Shown piece by piece: positions 7,093 to 50,571 of a stretch of DNA of 64,000 bases (position 1 is the stretch's first letter; the number at the start of each line of letters is the position of its first letter). Location: assembly GCA_042584005.1 (NCBI GenBank), contig JBHOTF010000008.1, positions 27-64,026 on the forward strand. The letters are read 5' to 3'. Source of the DNA: Bacteroidota bacterium. Its GTDB lineage: Bacteria; Bacteroidota; Bacteroidia; Bacteroidales; JBHOTF01. The notes beneath the pieces were generated by a model. The model saw nothing but the letters and a program-made list of their open reading frames with translations, did no database searches and was not told where the DNA came from. Both the position numbers and the translations under genes were made by a program.

Positions 7093-8472
7093 ATGTCTGG
7101 AAGAATCTTTTATTTAAAAGTATTAATTCGCACACTATTAATTATCATAACTGGATTATTGATAGTTCTTTCATTTGGAGTATTAGGACGGGAAAAAATA
7201 TTCACTCTTATTGTTGGGATTTTTTTGATTCTGATCCAAACTTATATGTTAACAAGGTTTGTAAATAAGATTAATAAAATTCTGATACAATTTATTGAGT
7301 CAATTGATTTAAATAAATCCGCTGATTTTCAGTTGAGTAGCACTGACAAGATATTTTCTGAACTACGGAAAAGCCTTAATCTGATACATAGCAGGGTGAG
7401 AAAGGGAAGAATGGAGGTTGAAAAGCAGAGTATATTACTTGACACAGTAGTAAATTCAATTGATACAGGATTAATTTCCTTTAACAAGGATGGGGATATT
7501 ATTTTTATTAATCAATTAGCCAGAACTATATTAGAAAATAATAATATTCGGAAATTATCAGAAGTGCAAAAAACCAGGCCTGAATTATATAAAGCATTTG
7601 TTAATCTTAAACCAGATAAACCTGTATTGTTTAAAACCTATAATAAAGGCAATTCCTTTTCTAATATTGAAAAAAGACAAAGTTTTTCTTTAAGATTAAA
7701 AAGCATAATTATAGATTCCCAGCTTTATAATATTATTTCTCTGCAAAATATTTTTGAGGAAATTGAAAAAAATGAATTGGAATCATGGCAAAAGTTAATT
7801 CGTATCCTTACTCATGAAATTATGAATGCCGTAAGCCCGATACTTTCTTTGGTATCTACTTTGAAAAATTACTTTACACATTCTGAATCAGGATCACAAA
7901 AATCTAATACTGAACTGAATAATGAAATTATTAATAAAACAATTAATGGTCTTCAAACTATTGAAGTAACTGGCGGAGGTCTTATTCATTTTGTTAATGA
8001 ATATAAAAGATTATCCGGTTTGCCTAAACCACAAATGAAGATATTTAATTTAGGAGAATTACTAAACCATATAGTTACATTAATGGATTCCGATATCAGG
8101 CATTTTGATATTAATCTAAACCTGACAATCAGTCCTGAAAATATTAATCTACTTGCTGATAAAACCCAGATTGAGCAGGTTTTAATCAATCTGTTTAAAA
8201 ATTCAATTGAGGCCTTAAAACAAAAAACAAAAAAGAGTATAAATTTAACTGCAGAGATAATAAATGAAAGAGTTGTTATACAAGTAGAAGATAATGGTGA
8301 AGGTATGAGCCCTGAAACTATAGATAAAATTTTTATTCCCTTTTTTACCACCAGGGAAAAAGGATCAGGAATCGGCTTAAGCCTGACAAGACAAATAATG
8401 CGTAATCATGACGGATTTATCCAGGTAAATTCTGTTAAAAATGAAAAGACAGTATTCTCATTGCATTTTTAA
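7093..8472 (+). CDS. Membrane sensor histidine kinase (NtrY-like)
   Basis: Two TM helices, PAS-like region, H-box LTHEIMN, N-box, DNGEG, GSGIGL; start at ATG 7093 just after the regulator stop. Confidence 0.92.
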   Translation: MSGRIFYLKVLIRTLLIIITGLLIVLSFGVLGREKIFTLIVGIFLILIQTYMLTRFVNKINKILIQFIESIDLNKSADFQLSSTDKIFSELRKSLNLIHSRVRKGRMEVEKQSILLDTVVNSIDTGLISFNKDGDIIFINQLARTILENNNIRKLSEVQKTRPELYKAFVNLKPDKPVLFKTYNKGNSFSNIEKRQSFSLRLKSIIIDSQLYNIISLQNIFEEIEKNELESWQKLIRILTHEIMNAVSPILSLVSTLKNYFTHSESGSQKSNTELNNEIINKTINGLQTIEVTGGGLIHFVNEYKRLSGLPKPQMKIFNLGELLNHIVTLMDSDIRHFDINLNLTISPENINLLADKTQIEQVLINLFKNSIEALKQKTKKSINLTAEIINERVVIQVEDNGEGMSPETIDKIFIPFFTTREKGSGIGLSLTRQIMRNHDGFIQVNSVKNEKTVFSLHF

Positions 8473-8556
8473 CGATATATTAACGTTACATTAACCAAAG
8501 ATCTTTTATAAATGACTTAATTTTGTTCTATTCATTAAATACTGGAATTTAATAAT

Positions 8557-9228: not shown

Positions 9229-9238
9229 TACCACACCC

Positions 9239-9342
9239 ACCACTTAACCAATACACCAATACACTACTTTACCAATAAACCTCTTAACCTCTCAACCAAT
9301 CCACCAATCCACCAATACACCAATACACCACTCCACCAATTC
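9239..9342. repeat. Degenerate 8-bp tandem repeat (ACCAATAC consensus), 13 units
   Basis: accactta accaatac accaatac actacttt accaataa acctctta acctctca accaatcc accaatcc accaatac accaatac accactcc accaattc between convergent genes. Confidence 0.9.
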
Positions 9343-10447: not shown

Positions 10448-10546
10448 CATTAACTCCTTACAGTCGTTGAGACCGCTTTGCTTAGTTCAAAATTCAACAT
10501 TAACTCCTTACAGTCGTTGAGATCTCTTCGCTAAGTTCACTATTCA
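10448..10546. repeat. Two 50-bp direct repeats, each carrying a GA/GA-GTA mini-hairpin
   Basis: CATTAACTCCTTACAGTCGTTGAGA identical at 10448 and 10498; minus strand reads aac-GA-ct-GTA-ag-GA-gtt. Confidence 0.85.
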
Positions 10547-10561
10547 GAATTTCTTCTCCAA

Positions 10562-10612
10562 GCTCCTTACTCCCTACTCCCTACTCCTTACTCCCTACTC
10601 CTTACTCCCTAC
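10562..10612. repeat. Heptamer tandem repeat ACTCCYT x7 overlapping the amidohydrolase stop
   Basis: gctcctt actccct actccct actcctt actccct actcctt actccct. Confidence 0.9.
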
Positions 10613-17568: not shown

Positions 17569-19149
17569 TTAATTATTAAGATTATTTGAAGTTTTTAAAA
17601 TAAAAATACTGTTTCCCTGCAATGTGATTTGATTTCCATTTGCTTTAAAAACCGAATGTGTAGAAAAAACCGTCTGAAATTGTGATATATTTTGAGGCGA
17701 ATCAATTACCTGGTAATCATCTAACAAGTTGATAATTACAAATATATATTCATCTTCTATCATTCTATAAAAAGCAATTACATGTTTATTATCTGTATTA
17801 TAGGAATATAAGTCTCCCTGACGAAGAGCTTTTGATTGATTTCTAACATGAATTAGTTTTTTATAATGCTCATACAATGAATTATCATAATCTTTTTGGT
17901 AATAAAGAGGTTTGACAGTTTCCGGTGAAGAGAATATAGGAGTTTCCCAGTGAGTTTGTCCTTTATTTCTTTTGTCAACATTCCATAAAAAGGGTTCTCT
18001 AATATGAGGGTCAGGTTTTTCACCAAACATTCCAATTTCTTCTCCGTAGTAAATAAAAGGATTACCCGGAAGTGTTAATAATAGTGCGGCAGCAATCTTT
18101 GCTTTATTGATATCCCCTTTTAATTCAGACATTATCCTGTTCATATCATGATTTGATAGAAATATTGCATCTTCAAAATCAGGATTATTATCACGGTAGA
18201 GGTTTGAAATTTTATTACATTCATCGATAACATTCAGGTTCTTTCCTTCTAATACACTCTTTCTGATAACTTCAGCCAATTTAAAATTAAAAGCAGCTGA
18301 TATTCCATTGTCAAGAAAAGGGGCAATAATACTATCTTCTCCCCAAGCCTCACCAACAATAAATACATCCTTTTTGGTCTTTCTCATTGCTTTCCCAAAT
18401 TTTTTCCACCATTGCAGGGTCTTATCTAACTGTTCATCAGAATATATATGTTGCATAGCATCAAGCCTGAATCCGTCAATGCCTATTTCTTTGAGCCAGT
18501 AATTTCCAATTTTAATAATTTCTTCTCTTACTTTATTATTATCAAAATTCAGATCCGGCATTTCATTCCCGAAAAACCCATAATATCGTTCACCTTCAAG
18601 TTTATTTCCATTCTTATCGCGAACTTGATGCCAATGAGATTTTTCTTGTGCCCAAACTATTGAATCGCTTTCCCAAATATAATAATCGCGATACTCGTTT
18701 TCCGAGCCTGAACCAGATTCTTTAAACCAAGGATGCAAAAAGGATGTATGATTTACAACTAAATCAAGAAGCACTTTTATATCTCTTTTATGAGCCTCGT
18801 TTACAAGAGTTCTATAATCATCAAGTGTACCATAATCAGGATGTACCCCGTAATAATCTGAAACATCATATTTATGGTAAGATGGGGAGGGATGGAAAGG
18901 CAATAACCAGAGGCCGCCAATTCCCAGATCTTTCAAATAATCAAGCTTTTGTATTAAGCCTGGAATATCACCAATTCCATCTTCATTGGAATCATAAAAA
19001 GATTGGACAAAAACCGAGTAATAAACCCGTGTATCACGATTTTTATTACTTCCGCTATTTATATCGCCGGGATGTTCAAAATTCTGAGAGAAACTAACTG
19101 AAAAACAACAAAACACTAATAAAAAAAACAGGAGGTTAACTCTTCGCAT
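17569..19149 (-). CDS. Secreted GH13 alpha-amylase family glycosidase
   Basis: DLVVNH, GFRLDA, VGEAW, FLSNHD catalytic regions; YYGEEIG. Confidence 0.92.
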   Translation of the reverse strand: MRRVNLLFFLLVFCCFSVSFSQNFEHPGDINSGSNKNRDTRVYYSVFVQSFYDSNEDGIGDIPGLIQKLDYLKDLGIGGLWLLPFHPSPSYHKYDVSDYYGVHPDYGTLDDYRTLVNEAHKRDIKVLLDLVVNHTSFLHPWFKESGSGSENEYRDYYIWESDSIVWAQEKSHWHQVRDKNGNKLEGERYYGFFGNEMPDLNFDNNKVREEIIKIGNYWLKEIGIDGFRLDAMQHIYSDEQLDKTLQWWKKFGKAMRKTKKDVFIVGEAWGEDSIIAPFLDNGISAAFNFKLAEVIRKSVLEGKNLNVIDECNKISNLYRDNNPDFEDAIFLSNHDMNRIMSELKGDINKAKIAAALLLTLPGNPFIYYGEEIGMFGEKPDPHIREPFLWNVDKRNKGQTHWETPIFSSPETVKPLYYQKDYDNSLYEHYKKLIHVRNQSKALRQGDLYSYNTDNKHVIAFYRMIEDEYIFVIINLLDDYQVIDSPQNISQFQTVFSTHSVFKANGNQITLQGNSIFILKTSNNLNN

Positions 19150-19233
19150 AATCTAATAATTAAAATAAAATTAAAGATGTGAAGGTAAAAAATAATTATT
19201 TACCTTAAAACAATGATCGCAGCCACACCAATT

Positions 19234-19380
19234 AATTACGTTTTTACCGTCAGGCAAAAACAAATTACGCGAGTGTTAACGAGCGAATGAATTACAATTG
19301 AATAGCAATTGAATAACATGAGCGCAGCGAATGAATTACAATTGAATAACAATTGAATAACACGAGCAAAGCGAGTGAAT
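19234..19380 (+). repeat. Mini-hairpin / GAATWAC repeat array (copy 1)
   Basis: 11-mers AATTGAATAAC interspersed with gcGAgt-gtta-acGAgc, atGAgc-GCA-gcGAat and acGAgc-AAA-gcGAgt; abuts the permease stop at 19380. Confidence 0.85.
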
Positions 19381-20693
19381 CACCCCTTAATAATAAATTT
19401 AAGTAACAATCCCAGCTTAGGCCTTTTTCCCTGTAACAATATTGCAGACCTGAAGATTCTTCCTCCTGCCCATACAGAGAATATTGCAAATATTAATACT
19501 CCAATCATACCAACTATTGGTTGCCATAGTGGAATAGCAACAGGAGATGCCATTCTGGCTACCATAAGCATTGGTGTAAAAGGTGGAAATAATGACAAGC
19601 CGGTTGCCAAACTACCCATAGGATTCTGAATAATGACTAATATTAACATCATCGGAATAAAAAGAGGCACCATAGCAGGAAATTGCATTGATTGTGCATC
19701 CTTGGCATCATTACAGGCAGATCCCAGAGCGGCCATAATTGATCCAACCATAATAATAGCAAGTACCATATATACAAAGAACCATGGAATAACCTCCAAA
19801 GGTATTTTGTCAAGAAAATTCAATTGACCAGCAGTAAAAACTATGCCAATAATATATATTGACGATGTAGTTAAGGATACTCCCACTCCGCCCATTATTT
19901 TCCCCATCATAAATTGAAAAGGAGTTACTGATCCAAGTAATACCTCCGCAATTCGTTCTCCTTTTTCTTCCATAACCGCACTAAGTAACGGAATTGCAGC
20001 CATCATTAACATCATAAACATAAGCAACATCATAAAATATGGTAAAAGAACAGATTCCAGCTCATTACTACTTTTTGCTTCATTAATATCACCTGTTTTT
20101 TCATCCATACTTATTAATCCCATCCCTTCAACACTATTATAATAAAACAGATCTTGTAAAATATTTTGATCCAGCTTAAGCTCTTCAACTCTTAATTGTT
20201 TAAGATGGTTATTGATCAATCTACTCACCCAACCTAAAAAACTATCCATAGAAGAGTTCTCTGAATAATAAAAAATTCTCGATTGTTTCCCTTCCCCCAC
20301 TGGATGAACAACATCAGGAGATATATGCACAAAACCATGCAATTCTCTTTCTCTAACCCGGTTTGATAATTCCAGTTTTTGCTTATCCAGATCATTTTCA
20401 GCCTGAACAATTTCTATAAGATAAGCAGGTTTGTTTTTTTCTTTGGTTTTCTCGTCAAATATTTCATTCTTATTACGATAATCAGCTGCTTCCTGAACTT
20501 TTTTTGCTACTACTCCGGATTCATCAATTAAAACAACTTTTTTATCCTTTGTGTCTACTTTATCTTTTAATAAAGCATATGCCAAAAATCCACCTCCCAT
20601 AAATATTGGAAGAACAATTAAAGCTATTAAAAAGCCTTTGGTTCGAACAGATGCGATATATTCCCTTTTTGCGAGTATCAGTATTTTTTTCAT
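19380..20693 (-). CDS. ABC-2 type permease (NatB/YhaP-like)
   Basis: MKKILILAKREY start, EEKGERIAEVLL, GKIMG, PPFTPMLM. Confidence 0.88.
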   Translation of the reverse strand: MKKILILAKREYIASVRTKGFLIALIVLPIFMGGGFLAYALLKDKVDTKDKKVVLIDESGVVAKKVQEAADYRNKNEIFDEKTKEKNKPAYLIEIVQAENDLDKQKLELSNRVRERELHGFVHISPDVVHPVGEGKQSRIFYYSENSSMDSFLGWVSRLINNHLKQLRVEELKLDQNILQDLFYYNSVEGMGLISMDEKTGDINEAKSSNELESVLLPYFMMLLMFMMLMMAAIPLLSAVMEEKGERIAEVLLGSVTPFQFMMGKIMGGVGVSLTTSSIYIIGIVFTAGQLNFLDKIPLEVIPWFFVYMVLAIIMVGSIMAALGSACNDAKDAQSMQFPAMVPLFIPMMLILVIIQNPMGSLATGLSLFPPFTPMLMVARMASPVAIPLWQPIVGMIGVLIFAIFSVWAGGRIFRSAILLQGKRPKLGLLLKFIIKG

Positions 20694-20694
20694 A

Positions 20695-21603
20695 TTAATC
20701 TTCTTTTTGTGGTGAAGCAATTCTAATAAAAATATCATTCAGAGAGGGAGCAGAGAGCTCAAATTTCAACACTTTTGTCTTTTCCATTATTTCAGATAAA
20801 ATTTCCTGAGAATCTACACCTTTTTTAATTCTTATTTCCTGAACCTGGCCAAAATCATTTATTTTATCAATACCCGAAATTGATTGTAATGCACTATTAC
20901 CTTGCTCAGTATGAACCTGAATTGTATCCATTCCGTATTTTTCCTGAATGGATGTAAGAGTGCCATCCAGTACTTTTTTCCCCTTATATATCATAAAAAT
21001 AAAATCGCACATTTTTTCAGCAACTGACATATCATGCGTACTGAATATTATTGTGGAACCTTGAGATTGTAATTCCAAAACAATTGATTTTATAATTTCA
21101 GCATTAACAGGATCAAGTCCGGAAAAAGGCTCGTCCAAAATAATTAATTTGGGCCTGTTAATTACAGTAATTATAAACTGTACCTTCTGACTCATCCCCT
21201 TACTGAGAGTCTGAACTTTTTTGTTTGCCCATGCTGTCAGGTCAAATTTCTCAAGCCAGTAATCAGCCTCCGCACCGGTATTTACAACTCCTTTTAATTC
21301 AGCATAAAATTTGATAAGTTCTTTAACCTTCATCTTTTTATACAGTCCCCTTTCTTCAGGGAGGTATCCTACCCCATCAAGTCGGCTACCAAGAAATTTT
21401 TTTCCAAACAATTGAATATCTCCACTGTCAGGATACAGGATATTCATTATCATTCTGATGGTCGTTGTTTTTCCAGATCCGTTAGGACCAATAAAACCAT
21501 AAATACTGCCCTTTGGAACCTCAAGTGAAAGCTTGTCAACTGCAACATGCTTACCAAAAGTTTTGGTGATGTTTTCCAGCTCTATTATATTCATATTTTC
21601 CAA
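20695..21603 (-). CDS. ABC transporter ATP-binding protein (NatA/YhaQ-like)
   Basis: GPNGSGKTT, LSKGM, ILDEPFSGLD, STH, PSLNDIF. Confidence 0.93.
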   Translation of the reverse strand: MENMNIIELENITKTFGKHVAVDKLSLEVPKGSIYGFIGPNGSGKTTTIRMIMNILYPDSGDIQLFGKKFLGSRLDGVGYLPEERGLYKKMKVKELIKFYAELKGVVNTGAEADYWLEKFDLTAWANKKVQTLSKGMSQKVQFIITVINRPKLIILDEPFSGLDPVNAEIIKSIVLELQSQGSTIIFSTHDMSVAEKMCDFIFMIYKGKKVLDGTLTSIQEKYGMDTIQVHTEQGNSALQSISGIDKINDFGQVQEIRIKKGVDSQEILSEIMEKTKVLKFELSAPSLNDIFIRIASPQKED

Positions 21604-21633
21604 TTATATTGGTAAAAAATAATTTTTATCCAG

Positions 21634-21641
21634 CAAAGATA
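21634..21641 (-). promoter_or_regulatory. Bacteroidota -7 promoter box
   Basis: Minus strand TATCTTTG about 30 nt upstream of the ABC ATPase start. Confidence 0.55.
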
Positions 21642-21788
21642 ATCTTTCTGTTCACTTCAATTTACAATTAAGCTCTAATATTACTATTAGTCTTTAATAT
21701 TTATAAATTATTACATTTTTCGAAAAATATTTTTGGTTTTTTTCTCCAACAGGTAAATATTATTGATCTTATGTGCCCAAATTACAAT

Positions 21789-22102
21789 GAATTACGGTTG
21801 AGCCGTAGGCGAAACCAAATTACACGAGTTTAGCAATTGAATAACGTGAGCGCAGCGAACAAATAACACGAGCGTAGCGAGTGAATTACACGAACGCAGT
21901 GAGTGAATAACACGAGCATAGCGAGTGAATAACACGAACGCAGTGAGTGAATAACACGAGCATAGCGAGTGAATAACACGAACGCAGTGAGTGAATAACA
22001 CGAGCATAGCGAGTGAATAACACGAACGCAGTGAGTGAATAACACGAGCATAGCGAGTGAATAACACGAACGCAGTGAGTGAATTACGTGAACATAGCGA
22101 TT
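21789..22102 (+). repeat. Mini-hairpin array (copy 2): leader hairpin plus 13 x 22-bp units, including four perfect 44-bp A/B dimers
   Basis: GAATAAC-ACGAGCATAGCGAGT alternating with GAATAAC-ACGAACGCAGTGAGT (21905-22080); leader GGTTGAGCCGTAGGCGAAACC. Confidence 0.95.
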
Positions 22103-22154
22103 TTTTATCAGGAATGTATTAAATTAGAAGCTTCTCATTTTAATATTAAGTGAT

Positions 22155-23939
22155 ATGAAGATAACCCGGACATTCGATCTTCTGGAAAAATATAAGGCTG
22201 AATTCAATAAAGAAGATGCTTTTGCTGTAAAACAAGATGGTTCCTGGATAAAATATAGTACTGATGAATATATTAATTATTCATATTGGTTTTGCTACGG
22301 GATACAAAAACTTGGTTTAAAAAAAGGTGATAAAATAGTTACTATTACTAATAACAGACCGGAATGGAACTTTGTTGATATGGGAATGGCTATGGCCGGA
22401 ATTGTTCATGTTCCGGTTTTCTCTACTCTTAACCATAAAGAATATCATTATATTTTACAACATTCGGACACCAAACTGGTATTAGTTTCCGATAAAAAAC
22501 TTTACGATTTAGTTAATCCTCTTTGTAATTCTATTAAATCGATTCAAAACATTTATTCTTTTAATGAGATAGATGGTGCTAAAAACTGGATGGAAATTAT
22601 TGAAAGTGGCAGATCATCAGAAAAAGATTATAAAGAAGAAACAGAAATCATAAAGGAGAATATTTCCCCTGATGATCTGGCTACAATAATCTACACTTCA
22701 GGAACAACAGGACAGCCAAAAGGAGTAATGTTATCGCATAAAAATCTGGTTAGCAATTTTATATCTGCTGCCGGAGTATTCCAGCTTAAAACTACAGACC
22801 GGTATTTAAGTATTCTTCCTTTATGCCATGTAGGGGGACGATTAGGAAATTATCAAACTCAATATAGCGGATCAAGTATATATTATGCTGAAAATATGGG
22901 GACAATAGCAATCAATATGAAGGAGATTCAGCCACAAGGCTTTGATGCTGTTCCCAGAATTCTTGAAAAGATATACGATACCGTTATTGCAAAAGGAAAA
23001 AAACTAAAAGGATTTAAAAAATTTATGTTTTTCTGGGCAGTTAAAGTTGGCTCAAAATATAAAACTCCTGATGAAAGCAGCTGGCTTTATAGAAAAAAGT
23101 TAGCAATTGCCGACAAACTAATTTTTACTAAATGGAGGGAAGCACTTGGCGGGAATATTAAGCTTGTAGGATGTGGTGCAGCTTGTTTACTACCTCATCT
23201 TGAAAGAATCTTCTGGGCATGCAATATCAAAATAATAAACATGTACGGACTTTCTGAAACATCTCCTATAATTACAATTAACCGAACAAAAAAACCTGAT
23301 CTCAAACTTGGTTCGGTTGGAGCATTGATTAAAGATGTAAAAGTAAAGATAGCCGATGATGGGGAAATTATGTGTAAAGGTCCGAATGTAATGTCTGGTT
23401 ACTACAAAGACCCTGAACTTACTAAATCAGTATTTGATAAGGACGGATGGTTTCATACTGGTGACATAGGATTTCTCGAAGATAATAAGTTTCTTAATGT
23501 GACAGATAGAAAAAAGGAAATCTTTAAACTGTCAACAGGGAAGTTTATTGCACCACAATTAATTGAAAATACTTTTAAACAATCAATATTCATCGACCAG
23601 ATCATGATTATAGGAGAGCATCAAAAATTTGCCAGTGCTCTGATTTCTCCAAATTTCTCCTACTTTAAAGACTGGTGCAAAAATGAAAATCTTCAATATT
23701 CCAGCAATGAGGAATTAATTAATCTCCCCCAGGTAATAAATCTTTTTAATGATGTGATAAAAAAAACAAATAAAACACTTAATAATCATGAAATAATTAA
23801 ACGTTTTAAGCTTGTTGCCAGCGAATGGTCACCAGGAGGCGGGGAACTATCGCCTACCTTAAAACTCAAACGTAGAAATATTGAAAATAAATATAAAATT
23901 TTGCTGGATCAGATATATCCTCCAAAAACAGACTATTGA
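22155..23939 (+). CDS. Long-chain fatty acid--CoA ligase (FadD/FAA1 family)
   Basis: IYTSGTTGQPKG, YGLSET, GWFHTGDIG, DRKK, PTLKLKR. Confidence 0.93.
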   Translation: MKITRTFDLLEKYKAEFNKEDAFAVKQDGSWIKYSTDEYINYSYWFCYGIQKLGLKKGDKIVTITNNRPEWNFVDMGMAMAGIVHVPVFSTLNHKEYHYILQHSDTKLVLVSDKKLYDLVNPLCNSIKSIQNIYSFNEIDGAKNWMEIIESGRSSEKDYKEETEIIKENISPDDLATIIYTSGTTGQPKGVMLSHKNLVSNFISAAGVFQLKTTDRYLSILPLCHVGGRLGNYQTQYSGSSIYYAENMGTIAINMKEIQPQGFDAVPRILEKIYDTVIAKGKKLKGFKKFMFFWAVKVGSKYKTPDESSWLYRKKLAIADKLIFTKWREALGGNIKLVGCGAACLLPHLERIFWACNIKIINMYGLSETSPIITINRTKKPDLKLGSVGALIKDVKVKIADDGEIMCKGPNVMSGYYKDPELTKSVFDKDGWFHTGDIGFLEDNKFLNVTDRKKEIFKLSTGKFIAPQLIENTFKQSIFIDQIMIIGEHQKFASALISPNFSYFKDWCKNENLQYSSNEELINLPQVINLFNDVIKKTNKTLNNHEIIKRFKLVASEWSPGGGELSPTLKLKRRNIENKYKILLDQIYPPKTDY

Positions 23940-23963
23940 TAATCCAGATAATCCTTTAACTTA

Positions 23964-25133
23964 ATGCAAATAACCAGAGTATCTGATAAAAAACTAAGAC
24001 AAGAATTCACTGATGTAGCCAAAATAATTTACAAAAATGATTCTGTATGGGTATGTCCTCTCGACATGCAGATAAATGAAATTTTCGATCCGGCACAAAA
24101 TACATATTACACACACGGTATTGCAGAACGATGGGTACTGAAAAATGATAAAAATGATTTAATTGGCAGAATAGCGGCATTTATCGACTTCAATGTTGCA
24201 AAATCACATGACCAGGCTACCGGAGGAATTGGATTTTTCGAATGTATTGACAATCAAGATGCTGCATGTCTGCTTTTCAATAGAGCAAAAGAATGGCTGA
24301 TAAATAATGGAATGGAAGCAATGGATGGCCCCATAAATTTCGGTGAAACGGATAAGTTCTGGGGACTTCTGGTTGATGGTTTTACTCATCCTTCCTATGA
24401 AATTGCATATAATCACAAATATTACCAGAATTTATTTGAATCTTACGGATTTAAGACCTATTACAAACAAGAAGGTTTTCATTTTGATCTTAAAAAAGAT
24501 ATTCCTGCCCGTATTTTGAAAATTGCCGAATGGGTTGTAAACAAACCAGAATATGAATTCAAACATTTTACATGGAAAAGACAGGATAAATTCATTTTGG
24601 ATTTTGTTGAGGTTTATAATATTGCCTGGAAATCTTTCAAGGAAAATTTCGAGCCTATAAAACTTGAATACATAAAAAAAACACTTAAAAAAGCTAAACC
24701 AATTATTGATGAAGAATTTATCTGGATTGCATATAAAGATGGAGACCCTATTGCAATTTTTTTAATGTATCCTGATGTTAATCTTATACTTAAACATTTG
24801 AATGGCAAGCTTCATTTGTTTAATAAACTTAAATTTCTTTATCTAAAAAGAAAAAAGACCATAACCAGAGTTAGAGGAGTTTTGATGGGGGTAATACCTA
24901 AGTATCAGAATCTTGGTATTGAATCAGCTATAATATGGCATTTACATCAGGTATTTAAAAGAAAAACACAATACGAAGAAATAGAATTCTCCTGGGTTGG
25001 TGATTTTAATCCCAAAATGAGAAGAATCTTTACATCTGTCGGAAGTAAATCAGTTAAACACTATATAACCTACAGATATTTGTTCGACCGGAATAAAGAA
25101 TACAAACGCCTTCCAATACCCGACATAAAATAA
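23964..25133 (+). CDS. GNAT-family N-acyltransferase (YghO-like)
   Basis: GRIAAF, GFFEC, GLLVDGF, GVIPKYQNLG. Confidence 0.75.
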   Translation: MQITRVSDKKLRQEFTDVAKIIYKNDSVWVCPLDMQINEIFDPAQNTYYTHGIAERWVLKNDKNDLIGRIAAFIDFNVAKSHDQATGGIGFFECIDNQDAACLLFNRAKEWLINNGMEAMDGPINFGETDKFWGLLVDGFTHPSYEIAYNHKYYQNLFESYGFKTYYKQEGFHFDLKKDIPARILKIAEWVVNKPEYEFKHFTWKRQDKFILDFVEVYNIAWKSFKENFEPIKLEYIKKTLKKAKPIIDEEFIWIAYKDGDPIAIFLMYPDVNLILKHLNGKLHLFNKLKFLYLKRKKTITRVRGVLMGVIPKYQNLGIESAIIWHLHQVFKRKTQYEEIEFSWVGDFNPKMRRIFTSVGSKSVKHYITYRYLFDRNKEYKRLPIPDIK

Positions 25134-25225
25134 TAATTTGTAAAATAATATGCCCCAGTGCATATTTTTCCATAAATCATTTTTTCATGCATATTAAAAC
25201 AATAGACAATATTGTTGCCTGAGAA

Positions 25226-26167
25226 ATGAACAAATTACCTAAATATAATCGTAGATCAATTCGCATAAAAAATTACAATTATGCAAATCCGGGATATTAT
25301 TTCATAACCATTTGTACATATAATAGAGAAAATTTATTTGGTAAAATTGTAAATGGAAAAATGATATTAAATTCAAATGGAAATATTGTAAAAAACGAAT
25401 GGTACAAAACGTTTAAAATCCGAAATAATATTATTTTGGATGCATTTGTTATAATGCCCAACCATTTCCATACCATAATCAATTGTTGTGGCAACAATGG
25501 CCATTATTATTATAATGGTGATATTTATAAAAATCCGAAACATCCCTATAGGGTCACGGCGCATTGTAAAAATATCGTTACGGGAAATCATAAATATAGG
25601 GACACGGCGCATTGTAAAAATATCGTTACGGGAAATCATAAATATAGGGACACGGCGCATTGTAAAAATATCGTTACGGGAAATCATAAATATAGGGACA
25701 CGGCGCATTGTAAAAATATCGTTACGGGAAATCATAAATATAGGGACACGGCGCATTGTAAAAATATCGTTACGGGAAATCATAAATATAGGGACACGGC
25801 GCATTGTAAAAATATCGTTACGGGAAATCATAAATATAGGGACACGGCGCGCCGTGTCCCTATATTAAATGCGCGCCGTGTCCCTATATTAAATGCGCGC
25901 CGTGACCCAATATTAAAACACGCACAAAAACAATATACGGCGGACCGTGACCCCACAACGGAACAATTTGGAAAACCAACATCGGGATCAATCCCAACAA
26001 TTATCAGGTCATTTAAATCTGCGGTAACAAAACGAATTAATGTTGATAATAAAACACCTGGGGGAAAAATATGGCAAAATGGTTATTATGTGCATATTTT
26101 TCGATCAAAAAATAAATTGGATATTATTCGAAAATATATTATTAATAATCCAAAAAATATGAAATAA
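25226..26167 (+). mobile_element. REP-associated tyrosine transposase (RAYT, IS200/Y1 HUH family) with in-frame repeat expansion
   Basis: RRSIR..YNY...GYYFITIC, HUH motif MPNHFH, IIRSFKSAVTK, WQ.GYY.HI.R, YIINNP carrying the presumed catalytic Tyr. Confidence 0.9.
25547..25918 (+). repeat. 6 x 48-bp left-arm repeats, a perfect 34-bp palindrome and 3 x 24-bp right-arm repeats inside the RAYT
   Basis: Unit TATAGGGACACGGCGCATTGTAAAAATATCGTTACGGGAAATCATAAA; palindrome AATATAGGGACACGGCGCGCCGTGTCCCTATATT at 25833-25866. Confidence 0.95.
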
Positions 26168-26284
26168 GGTCACGGCGCGCCGTGTGACTATATTAAAACA
26201 TACAATAAATCAACATAATACGTGCCGTGACCCTGTATCAAAACATACAATAAATCAATATCATACAGGCCGTGACCCTATATA
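26165..26284 (+). repeat. Degenerate REP copies downstream of the RAYT
   Basis: TAAGGTCACGGCGCGCCGTGTGACTA, GCCGTGACCCTGTA and GCCGTGACCCTATA separated by AAAACATACAATAAATCAA. Confidence 0.8.
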
Positions 26285-26285
26285 A

Positions 26286-26368
26286 GCAACACAAATGAAA
26301 CATAAAATTCAACAGTCACTGGTCACTGTTTCAAATATGCAACACAAATGAAACATAAAATTCAACAG
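26286..26368. repeat. 30-bp exact direct repeat duplicating the 3' end of the YgeY-like gene
   Basis: GCAACACAAATGAAACATAAAATTCAACAG at 26286-26315 and 26339-26368. Confidence 0.9.
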
Positions 26369-27521
26369 CAGTAAGCAGATCCTTTATTCTCACCTGATCG
26401 GTAGGAGTATGAGCATGTATTTCTTCGCCGGGGCCAAAACCTATTGATGGAATATCATATAATCCTTTTGTTGCTACACCATTGGTAGAAAATACCCATA
26501 CACCTGTTCCTGTTTCTTTACCAAACTGATCAGTATATGCTACTTTTGCTTTTTGCACCAGCTTGTGATTTTCATCCATTAACCACATCGGGTAATATGC
26601 CTTAACAGGATATTCCAATCCTGTATAACATTCAGCTTTATAATCAGGTATAATTACTTTTGCAGCTGTGGCTTTTACAGAAGGTAAATTTTCTATTTCG
26701 GCAATTGATGTTTCAATTGTTTCTCCTTCGCTTAATCGCCTGTCGAGATGAATAGTACAACTATCAGAAACTGCACAAAGAGAAGGTGTATCGGAGCAAA
26801 TATCTGTAACAGTAACAGTTCCTTTTCCGAGAATAGATTGGCTCTTCAAATCATTATTTAGTTTTTCAACATCCTGTAAAATGGAAGCCATTTTATAAAT
26901 AGCATTCTCCCCTCTCTCAGGTGCTGAACCGTGACATGATACTCCATCAGTTTTTATCTTCATTTCCATACGGCCTCTTTGCCCTATATTTATTGCCAGA
27001 TTTGTAGGTTCGGTTAAAAGAACTGCTTCAGGACGAATTTTTTCCTCATTTATCAGATATTGCCAGGAGGCCCCTTCAAGAGTTTCTTCAAGTACCGAAG
27101 CAACTACTACAACCGCTATATCAGCTGGCAACACCATGTCTTTCAATATTTTTCCTGCATATACTGCTGCAGCCAATCCGCCTTTCTGATCGGAGGCTCC
27201 TCTTCCATAAATAACACCATTCTTCAAATCACCTTTGAAGGGATCTACCTTCCATGTATCCAGGTTGCCAACATTCACAACATCACAATGGCCATCAATT
27301 GCTATGATACGGTTCCCAACTCCAATCCTGCCAATCAGGTTACCCATAGGATCGATCCATACTTTATCGTATCCAAGTTTTTCCATTTCCTGCTTTATCC
27401 TTTCAACAACCTCTTTTTCTTTACCGCTGGTTGAAGGAATAGCAATAATTTCCCTTAAAAAATTTACCATGTCCAGCTGTAAAAATTCAGCACGATTTTT
27501 AATCTTTTCTCTAATCGTCAT
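26331..27521 (-). CDS. YgeY-family M20 metallo-hydrolase
   Basis: DGHCDVV, GRGASDQKGG, VLEE, TEPT, GQRGRME, GVSCHGSAPERG, FSTNGV, GFGPGEE..AH. Confidence 0.85.
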   Translation of the reverse strand: MTIREKIKNRAEFLQLDMVNFLREIIAIPSTSGKEKEVVERIKQEMEKLGYDKVWIDPMGNLIGRIGVGNRIIAIDGHCDVVNVGNLDTWKVDPFKGDLKNGVIYGRGASDQKGGLAAAVYAGKILKDMVLPADIAVVVVASVLEETLEGASWQYLINEEKIRPEAVLLTEPTNLAINIGQRGRMEMKIKTDGVSCHGSAPERGENAIYKMASILQDVEKLNNDLKSQSILGKGTVTVTDICSDTPSLCAVSDSCTIHLDRRLSEGETIETSIAEIENLPSVKATAAKVIIPDYKAECYTGLEYPVKAYYPMWLMDENHKLVQKAKVAYTDQFGKETGTGVWVFSTNGVATKGLYDIPSIGFGPGEEIHAHTPTDQVRIKDLLTAVEFYVSFVLHI

Positions 27522-41011: not shown

Positions 41012-41266
41012 ATGATTGCAGCCAATTTTACAGAATTTAGGACTGAATTAAAAAAGTATCTTGATAATGTGGAGAATAATAATGAAACCTTAATAATTAA
41101 AAGGAAATCTGGTAAGGGTACAGTTATGATCTCTTTGGATGAATATAATTCAATAATGGAAACTGTTCACTTATTGAGTTCAAAAGTTAATGCTGACAGA
41201 CTTTACGAGTCAATTCAACAAATGAGAGATGGAAAAGTGATACAATCTGAATTAATAGAAGAATAA
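41012..41266 (+). CDS. yefM: Phd/YefM family antitoxin
   Basis: NFTEFR..LK.YLD.V, VMISLDEYNSIMET.HLL. Confidence 0.92.
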   Translation: MIAANFTEFRTELKKYLDNVENNNETLIIKRKSGKGTVMISLDEYNSIMETVHLLSSKVNADRLYESIQQMRDGKVIQSELIEE

Positions 41267-41526
41267 TGCGAATTACTTTTTCAAAAAACTCATGGGATGA
41301 TTATGTTTCCTGGCAAAAGAATGACAAAAAAGTATTAAAAAAGATTAATCAATTAATAAAGGATATTCAAAGATCACCCTTCGAAGGAATGGGAAATCCG
41401 GAGCCATTAAAATATGATTTATCAGGTTTTTGGTCGAGAAAGATATATTTAGAACACAGGATTGTTTACCAGGCATTTAACAAGGAAATATTAATATACA
41501 GCTGTAAATACCATTATGACAGATAA
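41266..41526 (+). CDS. yoeB: Txe/YoeB family toxin
   Basis: WDDY..W, GNPEPLKYDLSGFWSR.I..EHRIVY, HY at the C-terminus; coupled to the antitoxin. Confidence 0.92.
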   Translation: MRITFSKNSWDDYVSWQKNDKKVLKKINQLIKDIQRSPFEGMGNPEPLKYDLSGFWSRKIYLEHRIVYQAFNKEILIYSCKYHYDR

Positions 41527-48877: not shown

Positions 48878-50524
48878 ATGAAAACACTCATCCAGACCAG
48901 CAGATATTTAGCTATCACAGTTTTAATAGCCTGCTTTTTTAGCACAAGTCTTTTCAGCCAGGGAGAAAAAAAATCCGACTTGAAATTTAAGGTTTCATTT
49001 ACAAATGAAGCCCATCAAGATAATATCACCGGAAGAATTTATGTTATGATCTCTAAAAACAATAATAGAGAACCCAGATCACAGATTGGACTAACAGGTG
49101 TGCCTTTTTGGGGGAAAAATATATTCTCATTAAAACCTGGTGAAAGTGGAGTAATTGATGATGAGGTTTTTGGATATCCTCTGGAAAGCATAGCAGACAT
49201 ACCGGCCGGTGAATATTATGTACAGGCTTTTATTAATCTCTATACCGAGTTTAAACGTTCAGACGGGCACACCCTATGGATGCACAACGACCAGGGTGAA
49301 GGCCAAAGCTGGAGAAGATCGCCCGGAAATATGTATAGTGATGTTAAAAAGGTAAATATAGATCCTTCAAAAGCTCAAACAATTGAATTAAGCTGTTCAA
49401 CTGTTATTCCACCCATACCTCCAAAAGCTGATACAAAATGGGTTAAAAGAATAAAAATAAAAAGTAAATTATTATCTGATTTTTGGGGACAACCAATTTA
49501 TATTGGAGCAACAATTCTTCTACCTAAGAATTATGATAGAAATACTAATAAACACTATCCGGTAAATTATATTCAGGGACATTTTTCTTCAGGGGCACCA
49601 TACGGTTTCAGAGATAATAATGATCAGGGAAACAGCAGAGGAAGGAGCAATATTTCCGAATACTGGAAATCTGATGAATGCCCTGAAATGTTAGCAATTA
49701 CTTTATTACATCCATGTCCGTATTATGATGACTCATACGTTGTTAATTCACCAAATGTAGGGCCATATGATGATGCAATAATGAAAGAACTTATTCCACA
49801 TTTAGAAGAACAATTCCGCATTATAAAAGAACCTTATGCACGTATATTATCAGGAGGCTCAACCGGCGGATGGATATCACTGGCTATGCAGGTATTCCAC
49901 CCTGATTTTTTCGGTGGAACATTTTCTTTATGTCCCGATCCTGTTGATTTTCATTATCACCAGATAGTAAACATTTATGAAGATAAAAATGCATATTTCA
50001 AAGAATATGAGTGGATGAAAGTTGAAAGGCCAAATACCAGGGGAACTGATGGAAATATCAGGACTACTATGGAAAATGAGAACCTATATGAACTTGTTGT
50101 TGGTGATAAAAGTCGTTCAGGAGGACAATGGGATATATGGGAAGCGGCATACAGCCCAATAGGAGAAGATGGTTATCCTAAACGAATCTGGAATAAACGA
50201 ACCGGAGAAATTGACAATGAGGTGGCCAAAGAATGGGAAAAATTTGATATTCATCATTATTTAAAGGAAAACTGGAGCACTATTGGCCCCAAATTAGAAG
50301 GAAAACTATTTATCTATACAGGAAGTATGGATTCTTACTATTTAAATAATGCTGTGGTATTATTGGAAGATTATCTGAATAAAACAAAATACCCCTATTA
50401 CGACGGCAAGATTGAATACGGTTTAAGAAAACCACATTGCTGGGGACCAAGAGGAAAAGACCTGATCAAATTAATGGGCGATCAGGTTGCAAAGAATGCA
50501 CCATCAGGCACAGGTATAAATTGA
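48878..50524 (+). CDS. Secreted alpha/beta-hydrolase (putative esterase), paralog 3
   Basis: Signal peptide ending LFS-Q; YYDDSYVVN, GGSTGG, GSMD, HCW. Confidence 0.75.
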   Translation: MKTLIQTSRYLAITVLIACFFSTSLFSQGEKKSDLKFKVSFTNEAHQDNITGRIYVMISKNNNREPRSQIGLTGVPFWGKNIFSLKPGESGVIDDEVFGYPLESIADIPAGEYYVQAFINLYTEFKRSDGHTLWMHNDQGEGQSWRRSPGNMYSDVKKVNIDPSKAQTIELSCSTVIPPIPPKADTKWVKRIKIKSKLLSDFWGQPIYIGATILLPKNYDRNTNKHYPVNYIQGHFSSGAPYGFRDNNDQGNSRGRSNISEYWKSDECPEMLAITLLHPCPYYDDSYVVNSPNVGPYDDAIMKELIPHLEEQFRIIKEPYARILSGGSTGGWISLAMQVFHPDFFGGTFSLCPDPVDFHYHQIVNIYEDKNAYFKEYEWMKVERPNTRGTDGNIRTTMENENLYELVVGDKSRSGGQWDIWEAAYSPIGEDGYPKRIWNKRTGEIDNEVAKEWEKFDIHHYLKENWSTIGPKLEGKLFIYTGSMDSYYLNNAVVLLEDYLNKTKYPYYDGKIEYGLRKPHCWGPRGKDLIKLMGDQVAKNAPSGTGIN

Positions 50525-50571
50525 AAATTGAAAATTGAAAATTGAAAATTGAAAATTGAAAATTGAAAATT
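50521..50571. repeat. Perfect heptamer tandem repeat (TTGAAAA)x7 starting at the stop codon
   Basis: ttgaaaa repeated seven times; the first TGA is the stop of 48878..50524. Confidence 0.95.

Follow-up and report, generated by a model that had tools for sequence, protein, structure and literature searches.

A dispersed family of tandem-GA hairpin arrays between the genes of an uncultured Bacteroidota bacterium

The array in the window and its neighbours

The window analysed here, 64,000 nucleotides of contig JBHOTF010000008.1 (C8 in our numbering), belongs to a Bacteroidota metagenome-assembled genome (MAG) of 2.66 Mb, called G000 below, which is made up of 156 contigs, has a GC content of 33% and is 64% complete. 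Positions 21780-22102 of the window hold a tandem array with a 22-bp unit, in which a seven-letter tag, RAATWAC, is followed by a 15-nt hairpin consisting of 2 bp, tandem G.A pairs, 2 bp and a GNA loop; two types of unit, A and B, form a 44-bp superunit. An earlier note, made from the letters of this stretch, had described the units, the A/B alternation and the degenerate ends as we find them, and only the 5′ boundary had to be moved, from 21789 to 21780. Tandem Repeats Finder (TRF) returned the array with a period of 44 (6.4 copies, 92% matches, score 440) and with a period of 22 (11.2 copies). The parts of the array, its flanking genes and a smaller second array are as follows.

21780-21795, plus strand: two opening tags, AATTAC at 21780 and, after the filler AATG, AATTAC at 21790, as read from the sequence; a (C/T/A)ATG-AATTAC lead also precedes the long hairpin at other loci
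21796-21816, plus strand: long (L) hairpin GGTTGAGCC-GTA-GGCGAAACC, with 4 bp, tandem G.A, 3 bp and a triloop; usually found at or near the 5′ end of an array
21818-21845, plus strand: tag, degenerate second module (ACGAGTTTAGCAATT, 21824-21838) and the next tag; counterpart of the GCGAGTGWTAACGAGC module that follows the long hairpin elsewhere
21846-21882, plus strand: GTGAGC-GCA-GCGAAC (21846-21860), a tag and ACGAGC-GTA-GCGAGT (21868-21882), with the outer stem switched
21884-22081, plus strand: homogenised core of nine 22-bp units, with hairpins from 21890 to 22080
22082-22102, plus strand: final tag and degenerate hairpin (GTGAACATAGCGATT, 22088-22102), followed by a T run
20695-21603, minus strand: ABC transporter ATPase gene on the 5′ flank, divergent from the array
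22155-23939, plus strand: gene for an AMP-binding enzyme of the acyl-CoA ligase type on the 3′ flank, co-oriented with the array and starting 52 nt past it
19234-19384, plus strand: smaller second array of the same family, with an L-like hairpin, GCGAGTGTTAACGAGC, short-filler modules and two hairpins

In the core, ACGAAC-GCA-GTGAGT and ACGAGC-ATA-GCGAGT alternate strictly, and the inner pair toggles between A-T and G-C. In many units the linker G can pair with the C that closes the tag, which lengthens the outer stem to three pairs. The two hairpins of the smaller array are ATGAGC-GCA-GCGAAT and ACGAGC-AAA-GCGAGT, and the stop codon (19380-19382) of an opposite-strand ABC-2 permease gene lies inside its last tag-like sequence, GAATCAC. 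The main array does not read as a protein-coding repeat, since its 22-bp period is not a multiple of 3 and the minus-strand frames of 91 and 73 amino acids that run across it have no Pfam match at E<=0.1. A CRISPR array was ruled out as well, the constant part being only 7 nt long and the variable part being one of a few recurring hairpin types.

Fold, covariation and strand specificity

In order to describe the fold we assembled 85 distinct hairpins of 15 or 16 nt, 58 from G000 and 31 from other MAGs, with 4 common to both. Watson-Crick pairs fill 295 of the 340 stem cells, compared to a permuted mean of 181 (sd 7.5, maximum 204, 2000 permutations), and each of the four stem pairs occurs as two to four pair types. 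The GA/GA element is retained in 74 of the 85 hairpins, 52 of which have it in a Y-GA-R context on both sides. Among the 11 hairpins without it, six are perfect or near-perfect Watson-Crick hairpins (in five of these the 5′ GA is replaced by TC and the 3′ GA is retained) and the remainder are degenerate or off-register. The loops are GNA in 33, ANA in 17 and GNNA in 22 hairpins; triloops make up 60 of the 85, and of the approximately 24 four-base loops 21 are GNYA.

Covariation was tested with 31 of 33 candidate modules with 3-nt loops from seven genomes, the two left out being double short fillers. In these modules, 122 of 124 stem cells are paired (98.4%), compared to 76.3% in shuffles, and each of the four stem pairs has changed on its 5′ as well as its 3′ side; covariation scores 0.819, compared to 0.360 in shuffles, and for neither measure did any of 500 shuffles reach the observed value. 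Registers slid along the modules give at most 38% paired cells, and RNAalifold independently predicts the same structure. Where only one side of a pair has changed, G.T is commoner than A.C. Hence the proposal of the earlier note that pairing is kept through compensatory changes holds, and since the letters vary while the pairing is kept, the results suggest that what is selected is a single-stranded fold and not the sequence as such.

The fold belongs to one strand, and GA is confined to it. Under RNA parameters 81 of 125 modules are predicted to fold more stably on the GA strand and 9 on its complement, and under DNA parameters the corresponding figures are 68 and 9. All 39 exact mini-hairpin motifs in the arrays (GCGNAGC or GCGNNAGC) lie on the GA strand and none on the other, which agrees with the strand-specific fold proposed earlier; modules that lack an exact motif are AC/GT or CC/GG variants. 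According to a 2026 review (PMC13037366), GCGNAGC-type sequences form a 'mini-hairpin DNA' with a Tm of 76.5 °C as DNA, whereas r(GCGAAAGC) melts at 39 °C; mini-hairpins occur at the primase sites of G4, St-1 and alpha3, in RSF1010 ssiA and in N4 promoters; and a fragment bearing two of them was bound poorly by SSB. These melting data, together with the loop types of the arrays (GNYA rather than GNRA, and triloops), favour DNA over RNA. Taken together, these results establish a common fold with covarying stems on one strand of the arrays, and this hairpin forms on that strand only, most probably in single-stranded DNA.

Genomic setting, relatives and turnover

Chains of tags pick out 29 arrays in G000, two of them in the window. 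From 51 chains, those with neither hairpin nor short-filler modules were dropped, and the 28 that were kept plus one array on contig C17 make up the set. A module consists of the RAATWAC tag and one of three partners: a tandem-GA hairpin of 15-16 nt, the long hairpin, or a filler of 4-5 nt, the last giving arrays with an 11-nt period. The short hairpins of this genome comprise at least 12 stem variants. The long hairpin occurs in 13 exact-pattern copies, mostly near the 5′ end of an array and often followed by GCGAGTGWTAACGAGC; upstream of it, no conserved head was found beyond ATG-AATTAC. Array interiors are homogenised and array edges are degenerate. The strict pattern NNGANN-loop(3-4)-N′N′GAN′N′ has 329 matches in the genome, compared to 196, 190 and 205 in three block shuffles, more than expected by chance. 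With a YGAR context and an R..A loop imposed, 88 matches are left, 78 of which are on the array strand within about 4.9 kb of arrays, and singleton modules outside the arrays are almost absent from G000. On contigs C62 (656-950) and C134 (2670-2979), two arrays with wholly different hairpin modules and downstream flanks have in common an 86-nt upstream flank of 93% identity, which reaches the contig end of C134 and exists in these two copies only.

All 29 arrays are intergenic, 15 lying between convergent, 10-11 between tandem and 3 between divergent genes. In 22 of the 29 the gene on the 3′ side of the array is on the opposite strand, and the stop codon of that gene lies -4 to 43 nt from the last perfect tag in 21 arrays and 504 nt from it in one. 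In about a dozen arrays this stop codon is in, or touches, the last tag-like sequence. Arrays also occur head to head, at 11 loci (5 in G000 and 6 in other genomes), or at 12 if a gene-separated pair on contig C90 of G000 is counted as a sixth there; the arms point away from a shared midpoint, which in many cases is the palindrome GTAATTAC, and no convergent pair was seen among them. The open reading frame (ORF) that separates the C90 arrays is an ordinary acetyltransferase-like one. In the other MAGs the orientation of the array relative to its two neighbour genes is (same, opposite) in 7 cases, (same, same) in 6, (opposite, same) in 6 and (opposite, opposite) in none, and there is no single rule for array orientation relative to transcription. 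Neither is there a replication-strand bias, whether judged by GC skew over the 29 loci (positive on the array strand at 11, negative at 18) or relative to dnaA in one complete genome, G529, where about 8 loci point one way and 5-6 the other.

The family is patchily distributed. The long-hairpin pattern was found in none of 60 relatives of the same order, each from a different family, and G000 is alone in its family among these; no array was present at 80 metagenome loci, 542 kb in all, that carry the ligase gene of the 3′ flank at 58-66% identity. A pattern of two AATTAC-tagged modules, run across 185,579 species genomes, matched 8 loci in six other MAGs, five of which are labelled Bacteroidales, Bacteroidota or Rikenellaceae and one Peribacteria. 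The hairpins of these MAGs include new stem variants, some with longer stems, as well as perfect hairpins and plain GCGAAGC. In about twenty of 401 genomes of the order, matches to a loose tag pattern greatly exceed the control, and no GA hairpin was found in five of the tag-richest of them. In G132, G037, G076, G089 and G024, from other families of the order, there are dozens of tag-only arrays with periods of 7, 10 or 11, such as (GAATTAC)n and (CAATTAC/CAGTTAC)n, many of them at contig ends, which suggests assembly breaks. A double-hairpin pattern with no tag specified matched 14 of 301 Bacteroidota genomes, with 15 matches in G000. Among these, true arrays with other tags are present in G544, of the same class (GCCCTAAAA, 24-nt period, two loci), and in the complete genome G529, of another class (CAACCCCC); both have the same divergent, stop-abutting layout.

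Three of the genomes, G061, G063 and G064, have common flanks at 83-90% identity and allow the same sites to be compared. One site has 13 modules in G061 and none in G063 and G064. At another, in genomes whose flanks are 88-90% identical, two plus-arm modules are common to G061 and G063, whereas their minus arms differ in module type and number (10 and 3), and none are present in G064; at an orthologous site in G061 and G064 the modules are entirely different. No pair of empty and filled sites with clean junctions was seen among the sites compared in these genomes. These results show that the arrays turn over fast between genomes, and an assembly artefact is made unlikely by the presence of arrays in seven independent MAGs, in another two Bacteroidota genomes and at orthologous sites. 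In the literature, with supplements and subscription papers outside the scope, no description of AATTAC-tagged or tandem-GA hairpin arrays was found, and they are apparently an undescribed family of intergenic repeats in uncultured Bacteroidota.

The genome holds other repeats as well. At 10448-10612 of the window, hairpins on the minus strand belong to a second repeat family with a 50-bp unit in two copies, a GA-type hairpin ACGACTGTAAGGAGT and a GCGAAGC-like stretch; it adjoins (CTCCCTA)x7 and has further copies on contigs C9, C22, C37, C52 and C136. A third GA-hairpin family, GATCACA-CCGAYY..RRGAGG-GGTAATC, was found on C9 and C35. Short intergenic tandem repeats lie at 9238-9340 ((ACCAATAC)n, with a 24-nt superperiod) and at 50518-50571 ((AAATTGA)x7.7), and with 58 TRF rows in 64 kb G000 is unusually rich in short-period repeats. 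An ordinary toxin-antitoxin pair of the YefM/YoeB type is located at 41012-41526 (plus strand).

Readings of the arrays and comparison with known systems

We tentatively read the window array as one locus of a dispersed, modular noncoding family, a structured minisatellite resembling repetitive extragenic palindromes (REPs) and bacterial interspersed mosaic elements (BIMEs), which would fold in single-stranded DNA and whose hairpins would drive its tandem amplification. When the GA strand becomes transiently single-stranded during replication or repair, very stable mini-hairpins could extrude from it, and slipped pairing between identical tags would then duplicate or delete whole modules. Modules without pairing would be amplified less, so that the survivors would carry compensatory changes. 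New loci might arise by copying primed on tag-like sequence or through a nuclease, and selection would restrict the arrays to noncoding DNA, where they would fill the space up to the gene ends. The case for DNA is made by the mini-hairpin tops, the melting of DNA compared to RNA, the GNYA loops and the triloops; the case for a minisatellite is made by the homogenised interiors, the degenerate edges, the differences in module number between genomes and the tag-only arrays. In this respect the earlier note, which had set a structured element against a slippage minisatellite, was mistaken in the contrast, as the arrays are both constrained in structure and expanded or contracted by tandem duplication; the selection on structure and the strand specificity that it proposed stand, and its link to a REP-associated tyrosine transposase (RAYT), taken up below, is not supported.

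Several points weigh against this reading, in which the DNA rather than RNA setting, the hairpin-driven slippage and the mode of array spread are inferred. Slippage by itself does not explain how one design of tag and hairpin has spread to about 30 loci and several genera, nor does it explain why the GA mismatch survives when 'correction' by template switching should erase it. Orientation-dependent instability predicts a replication-strand bias, and none is seen. GA-sense transcription must run through certain arrays: one array of G544 ends about 10 nt before the ilvD start codon, and the window array lies upstream of a co-oriented gene. Finally, the conserved hairpin pairs in phage and single-stranded DNA virus contigs that are described below hint at a function rather than pure drive.

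The arrays could instead act as structured RNA, as hairpin arrays in untranslated regions that would make mRNA ends more stable, block read-through into the next gene, or serve an RNA-binding protein as target or sponge, which we consider possible but unlikely. Covarying hairpins are what marks RNA elements, tandem G.A is widespread in RNA, and the greater stability of the GA strand holds under RNA parameters. The arrays sit at gene ends, where in convergent pairs each arm would be sense for read-through from the far gene; all six arrays between tandem genes in the other MAGs are co-oriented with those genes, and the position of one G544 array just before ilvD fits as well. A -7-like motif lies 52 nt upstream of the window array, but motifs of this Bacteroidetes -7 type precede only 4 of the 29 arrays of G000, which is the background level (about 0.22 per 150 nt). 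In that genome 7 arrays are antisense to both neighbour genes and 3-4 are sense, and the 22 with an opposite-strand gene on the 3′ side are antisense to it. A scan of 18500-27000 with Rfam 15 gave no family at E<=1, one chance miRNA match elsewhere aside. The loops are GNA and GNYA and not GNRA, the mini-hairpin is far less stable as RNA than as DNA in the melting data cited above, and the tag-only heptamer arrays have no fold.

A more doubtful reading makes the hairpins substrates of an HUH single-strand nuclease (RAYT, IS200/IS605 TnpA, IS91-type or Rep-type), with the tag as the cleavage or guide sequence at the hairpin foot. Insertion beside an existing tag would regenerate the tag and would thus build arrays in one orientation. 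The target of IS608 is TTAC, and insertion 3′ of TTAC would explain same-orientation arrays of mixed hairpin types, arms that diverge around GTAATTAC and opposite-strand stop codons in the last tag, but the stop codon is exactly at tag positions 3-5 in only 5 of the 22 abutting cases. Left and right ends as in miniature elements of the IS200/IS605 type could not be defined, although the layout is compatible with insertion beside TTAC. A one-strand hairpin with a conserved 5′ tag is also what REPs have, and PMC3733652 describes REP families with alternative complementary stem residues in subfamilies, GA mismatches in one family and tandem reiteration; the paired inverted arms resemble REPINs as described in PMC3116915.

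The enzymes speak against this. A Y1_Tnp match is present in all five AATTAC-array genomes tested, but it is also present in 46 of the 60 relatives, and its presence is therefore uninformative; G544, which is 100% complete and bears arrays, has no Y1_Tnp match, while in G000, at 64% completeness, a Y1 gene may have been missed. Y1 genes were examined at 12 loci in 5 genomes and at 5 more in G529, and array modules flank none of them. The RAYT-like gene of the window and those of the 11 other Y1 genes whose flanks were read have different, private hairpin families, and the RAYT link suggested by the earlier note is not supported, though some other enzyme may act on the arrays. Microvirus-type Rep was found in none of 8 array genomes, and IS91-type Y2_Tnp was found in 4 of the 8 with no modules on its flanks. 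The near absence of singleton modules outside the arrays is likewise hard to reconcile with a mobile element of this kind. The RAYT-like ORF of the window (25226-26167, plus strand) matches Y1_Tnp only at residues 252-308 and is broken in frame by a 48-bp tandem repeat in 6.3 copies (25547-25850); it is flanked by palindromes of its own, of the GGGACACGGCG/CGCCGTGTCCC type (25847-25917 and 26168-26283), which are unrelated to the AATTAC arrays. On contig C3 (about 8200-8544, locus L021) the other Y1 transposase gene of G000 is flanked by repeated TCCGC-GTA-GCGGA and TCCTC-GTA-GAGGA hairpins, whose AT-rich tail is conserved. They form a REP-like family of their own, likewise with GTA triloops and compensatory changes.

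Similarly doubtful is a host signal in single-stranded DNA, in which the mini-hairpins would keep SSB off and flag the lagging-strand template for the action of primase, or for primosome loading or restart of the PriA type, as a chromosomal counterpart of the single-strand initiation (ssi) and primosome assembly sites (PAS) of single-stranded DNA phages and plasmids. The mini-hairpins at phage primase sites and in RSF1010 ssiA, and their poor binding by SSB, would fit such a role, and the divergent arms would by geometry place the GA strand of one arm on the lagging template for a fork from either side. In ColE1 (NC_001371, locus L219), positions 1332-1344 read GAGCGTAGCGAGT, with one mismatch to the 13-mer and equal to one window-array module in 13 of 15 letters; it lies downstream of the origin, in a noncoding stretch before rop. 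According to PMC3167613, ColE1-type plasmids have ssiA/n′-pas downstream of the origin. The similarity to ColE1 that the earlier note named is roughly right, and the 13-mer may lie inside the primosome site.

Viral contigs add to this case. The AATTAC-tagged two-module pattern has no match in them, whereas the pattern with no tag specified gives, with 11 N, 91 stretches compared to 21 in a reversed control (5 loci being shared) and, with 13 N, at least 118 stretches. At 169 viral loci there are 52 clusters with at least two fully complementary hairpins and many stem variants; the stems covary at L296, L290, L318/L332/L343/L353/L381 and L323/L329/L357, among others. Less weight is given to units of GCGAGC...GCGAGC and to one 9-nt tandem repeat, which only imitate pairing. 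An ORF scan, which covered 46 of 68 long viral ORFs, showed a Gemini_AL1-type Rep with helicase and geminivirus-like coat proteins on one contig, with six hairpins between rep and cap (CRESS type), and an S3 helicase with an S-domain coat on another. Ten loci have large terminase genes, and in four of these, on tailed-phage contigs, the hairpin pair is approximately 160-290 nt upstream of the terminase. Nevertheless, support for a host signal is purely by analogy, no strand bias relative to replication is seen, and 2 to about 30 loci per genome, with none in most relatives and with rapid gain and loss between close genomes, would be odd for a core replication function. Fainter still is the prospect that the tandem-GA mini-hairpin is a widespread single-stranded DNA signal read by a conserved replication or repair protein (a primase, a PriA-type loader or a hairpin-binding nuclease), which CRESS-type viruses and tailed phages carry in pairs near origins and genome ends, and that the chromosomal arrays at gene ends are priming or restart sites, or decoys for viral enzymes, rather than junk.

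That the arrays are an ordinary slippage minisatellite or an assembly artefact, with hairpins as a by-product of repeating a short quasi-palindromic unit, is very improbable: the arrays come from short-read assembly, the copy number in the window rests on that assembly, and direct repetition of GCGAGC...GCGAGC can mimic pairing, as the viral 9-nt repeat does, but at least 12 stem variants in seven genomes keep pairing through double changes, the same design occurs with three unrelated linkers, and arrays recur in independent assemblies and at orthologous sites. Tandem layout and changes in copy number are as in a simple minisatellite, and constraint beyond the unit is present as well, so that covariation largely refutes an unconstrained repeat.

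REPs are tied to a known enzyme and tag, and here the same logic appears with a much smaller unit, a different tag, tandem G.A and no enzyme in sight. If the fold acts in DNA, the arrays offer a natural system in which to study the effect of extremely stable mini-hairpins on repeat expansion, on replication and on the layout of gene ends; if a protein reads them, that protein is yet to be discovered. A practical consequence is that short-read assemblies break at the arrays and that false ORFs appear in them.

Like REPs, BIMEs and REPINs, the arrays consist of short imperfect palindromes with a tag at one foot, which are extragenic, enriched at gene 3′ ends and clustered, with covarying stems, complementary-stem subfamilies and inverted pairs. 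They differ in that the tag is AATTAC (or GCCCTAAAA or CAACCCCC) and not GTAG or CGTC, in that the hairpins are far smaller (15-21 nt) with an obligatory tandem G.A, and in that the modules stand head to tail in long arrays with a fixed spacing of 7-9 nt; no RAYT examined is flanked by modules, and no Y1 gene was detected in one carrier genome. The ends of IS200/IS605 elements and of their miniature derivatives (PATEs) are similar in having one-strand, subterminal imperfect hairpins beside a short target, and insertion 3′ of a tetranucleotide would fit, but the present arrays lack an element body with a left and a right end as well as a transposase close by, and their units are tandem and smaller by a factor of ten. 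Mini-hairpin DNA, d(GCGNAGC)/d(GCGNNAGC), has the same strand-specific apical motif, in which a GC stem carries a GNA or GNNA loop closed by C:G, and by sequence the arrays have this GC stem with a sheared G.A closing a 3-4-base loop on one strand. It is known from individual sites within the origins of phages or plasmids, whereas the arrays here reach 22 modules at many chromosomal loci and add the tandem G.A and a fixed linker.

Two further groups of small repeats are comparable. The tandem repeats of the heptamer TAACTGA (short tandemly repeated repetitive sequences, STRR), which MacGregor in 2015 is said to have described in Cyanobacteria, Beggiatoaceae and Bacteroidetes, are also intergenic arrays of 7-nt units, patchy in distribution, abutting start or stop codons and with stop codons in one orientation, and the tag-only (GAATTAC)n arrays of the present order look like them. 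Their heptamer is different, however, and they have no hairpin between the units and no reported covariation. The small dispersed repeats of cyanobacteria, reportedly treated by Elhai in 2008, and the hairpin elements of sponge mitochondria are, by a loose comparison, likewise tiny intergenic hairpin repeats with no known enzyme, but they have other sequences and other hosts, and the fixed linker and tandem-GA hairpin appear to set the present arrays apart.

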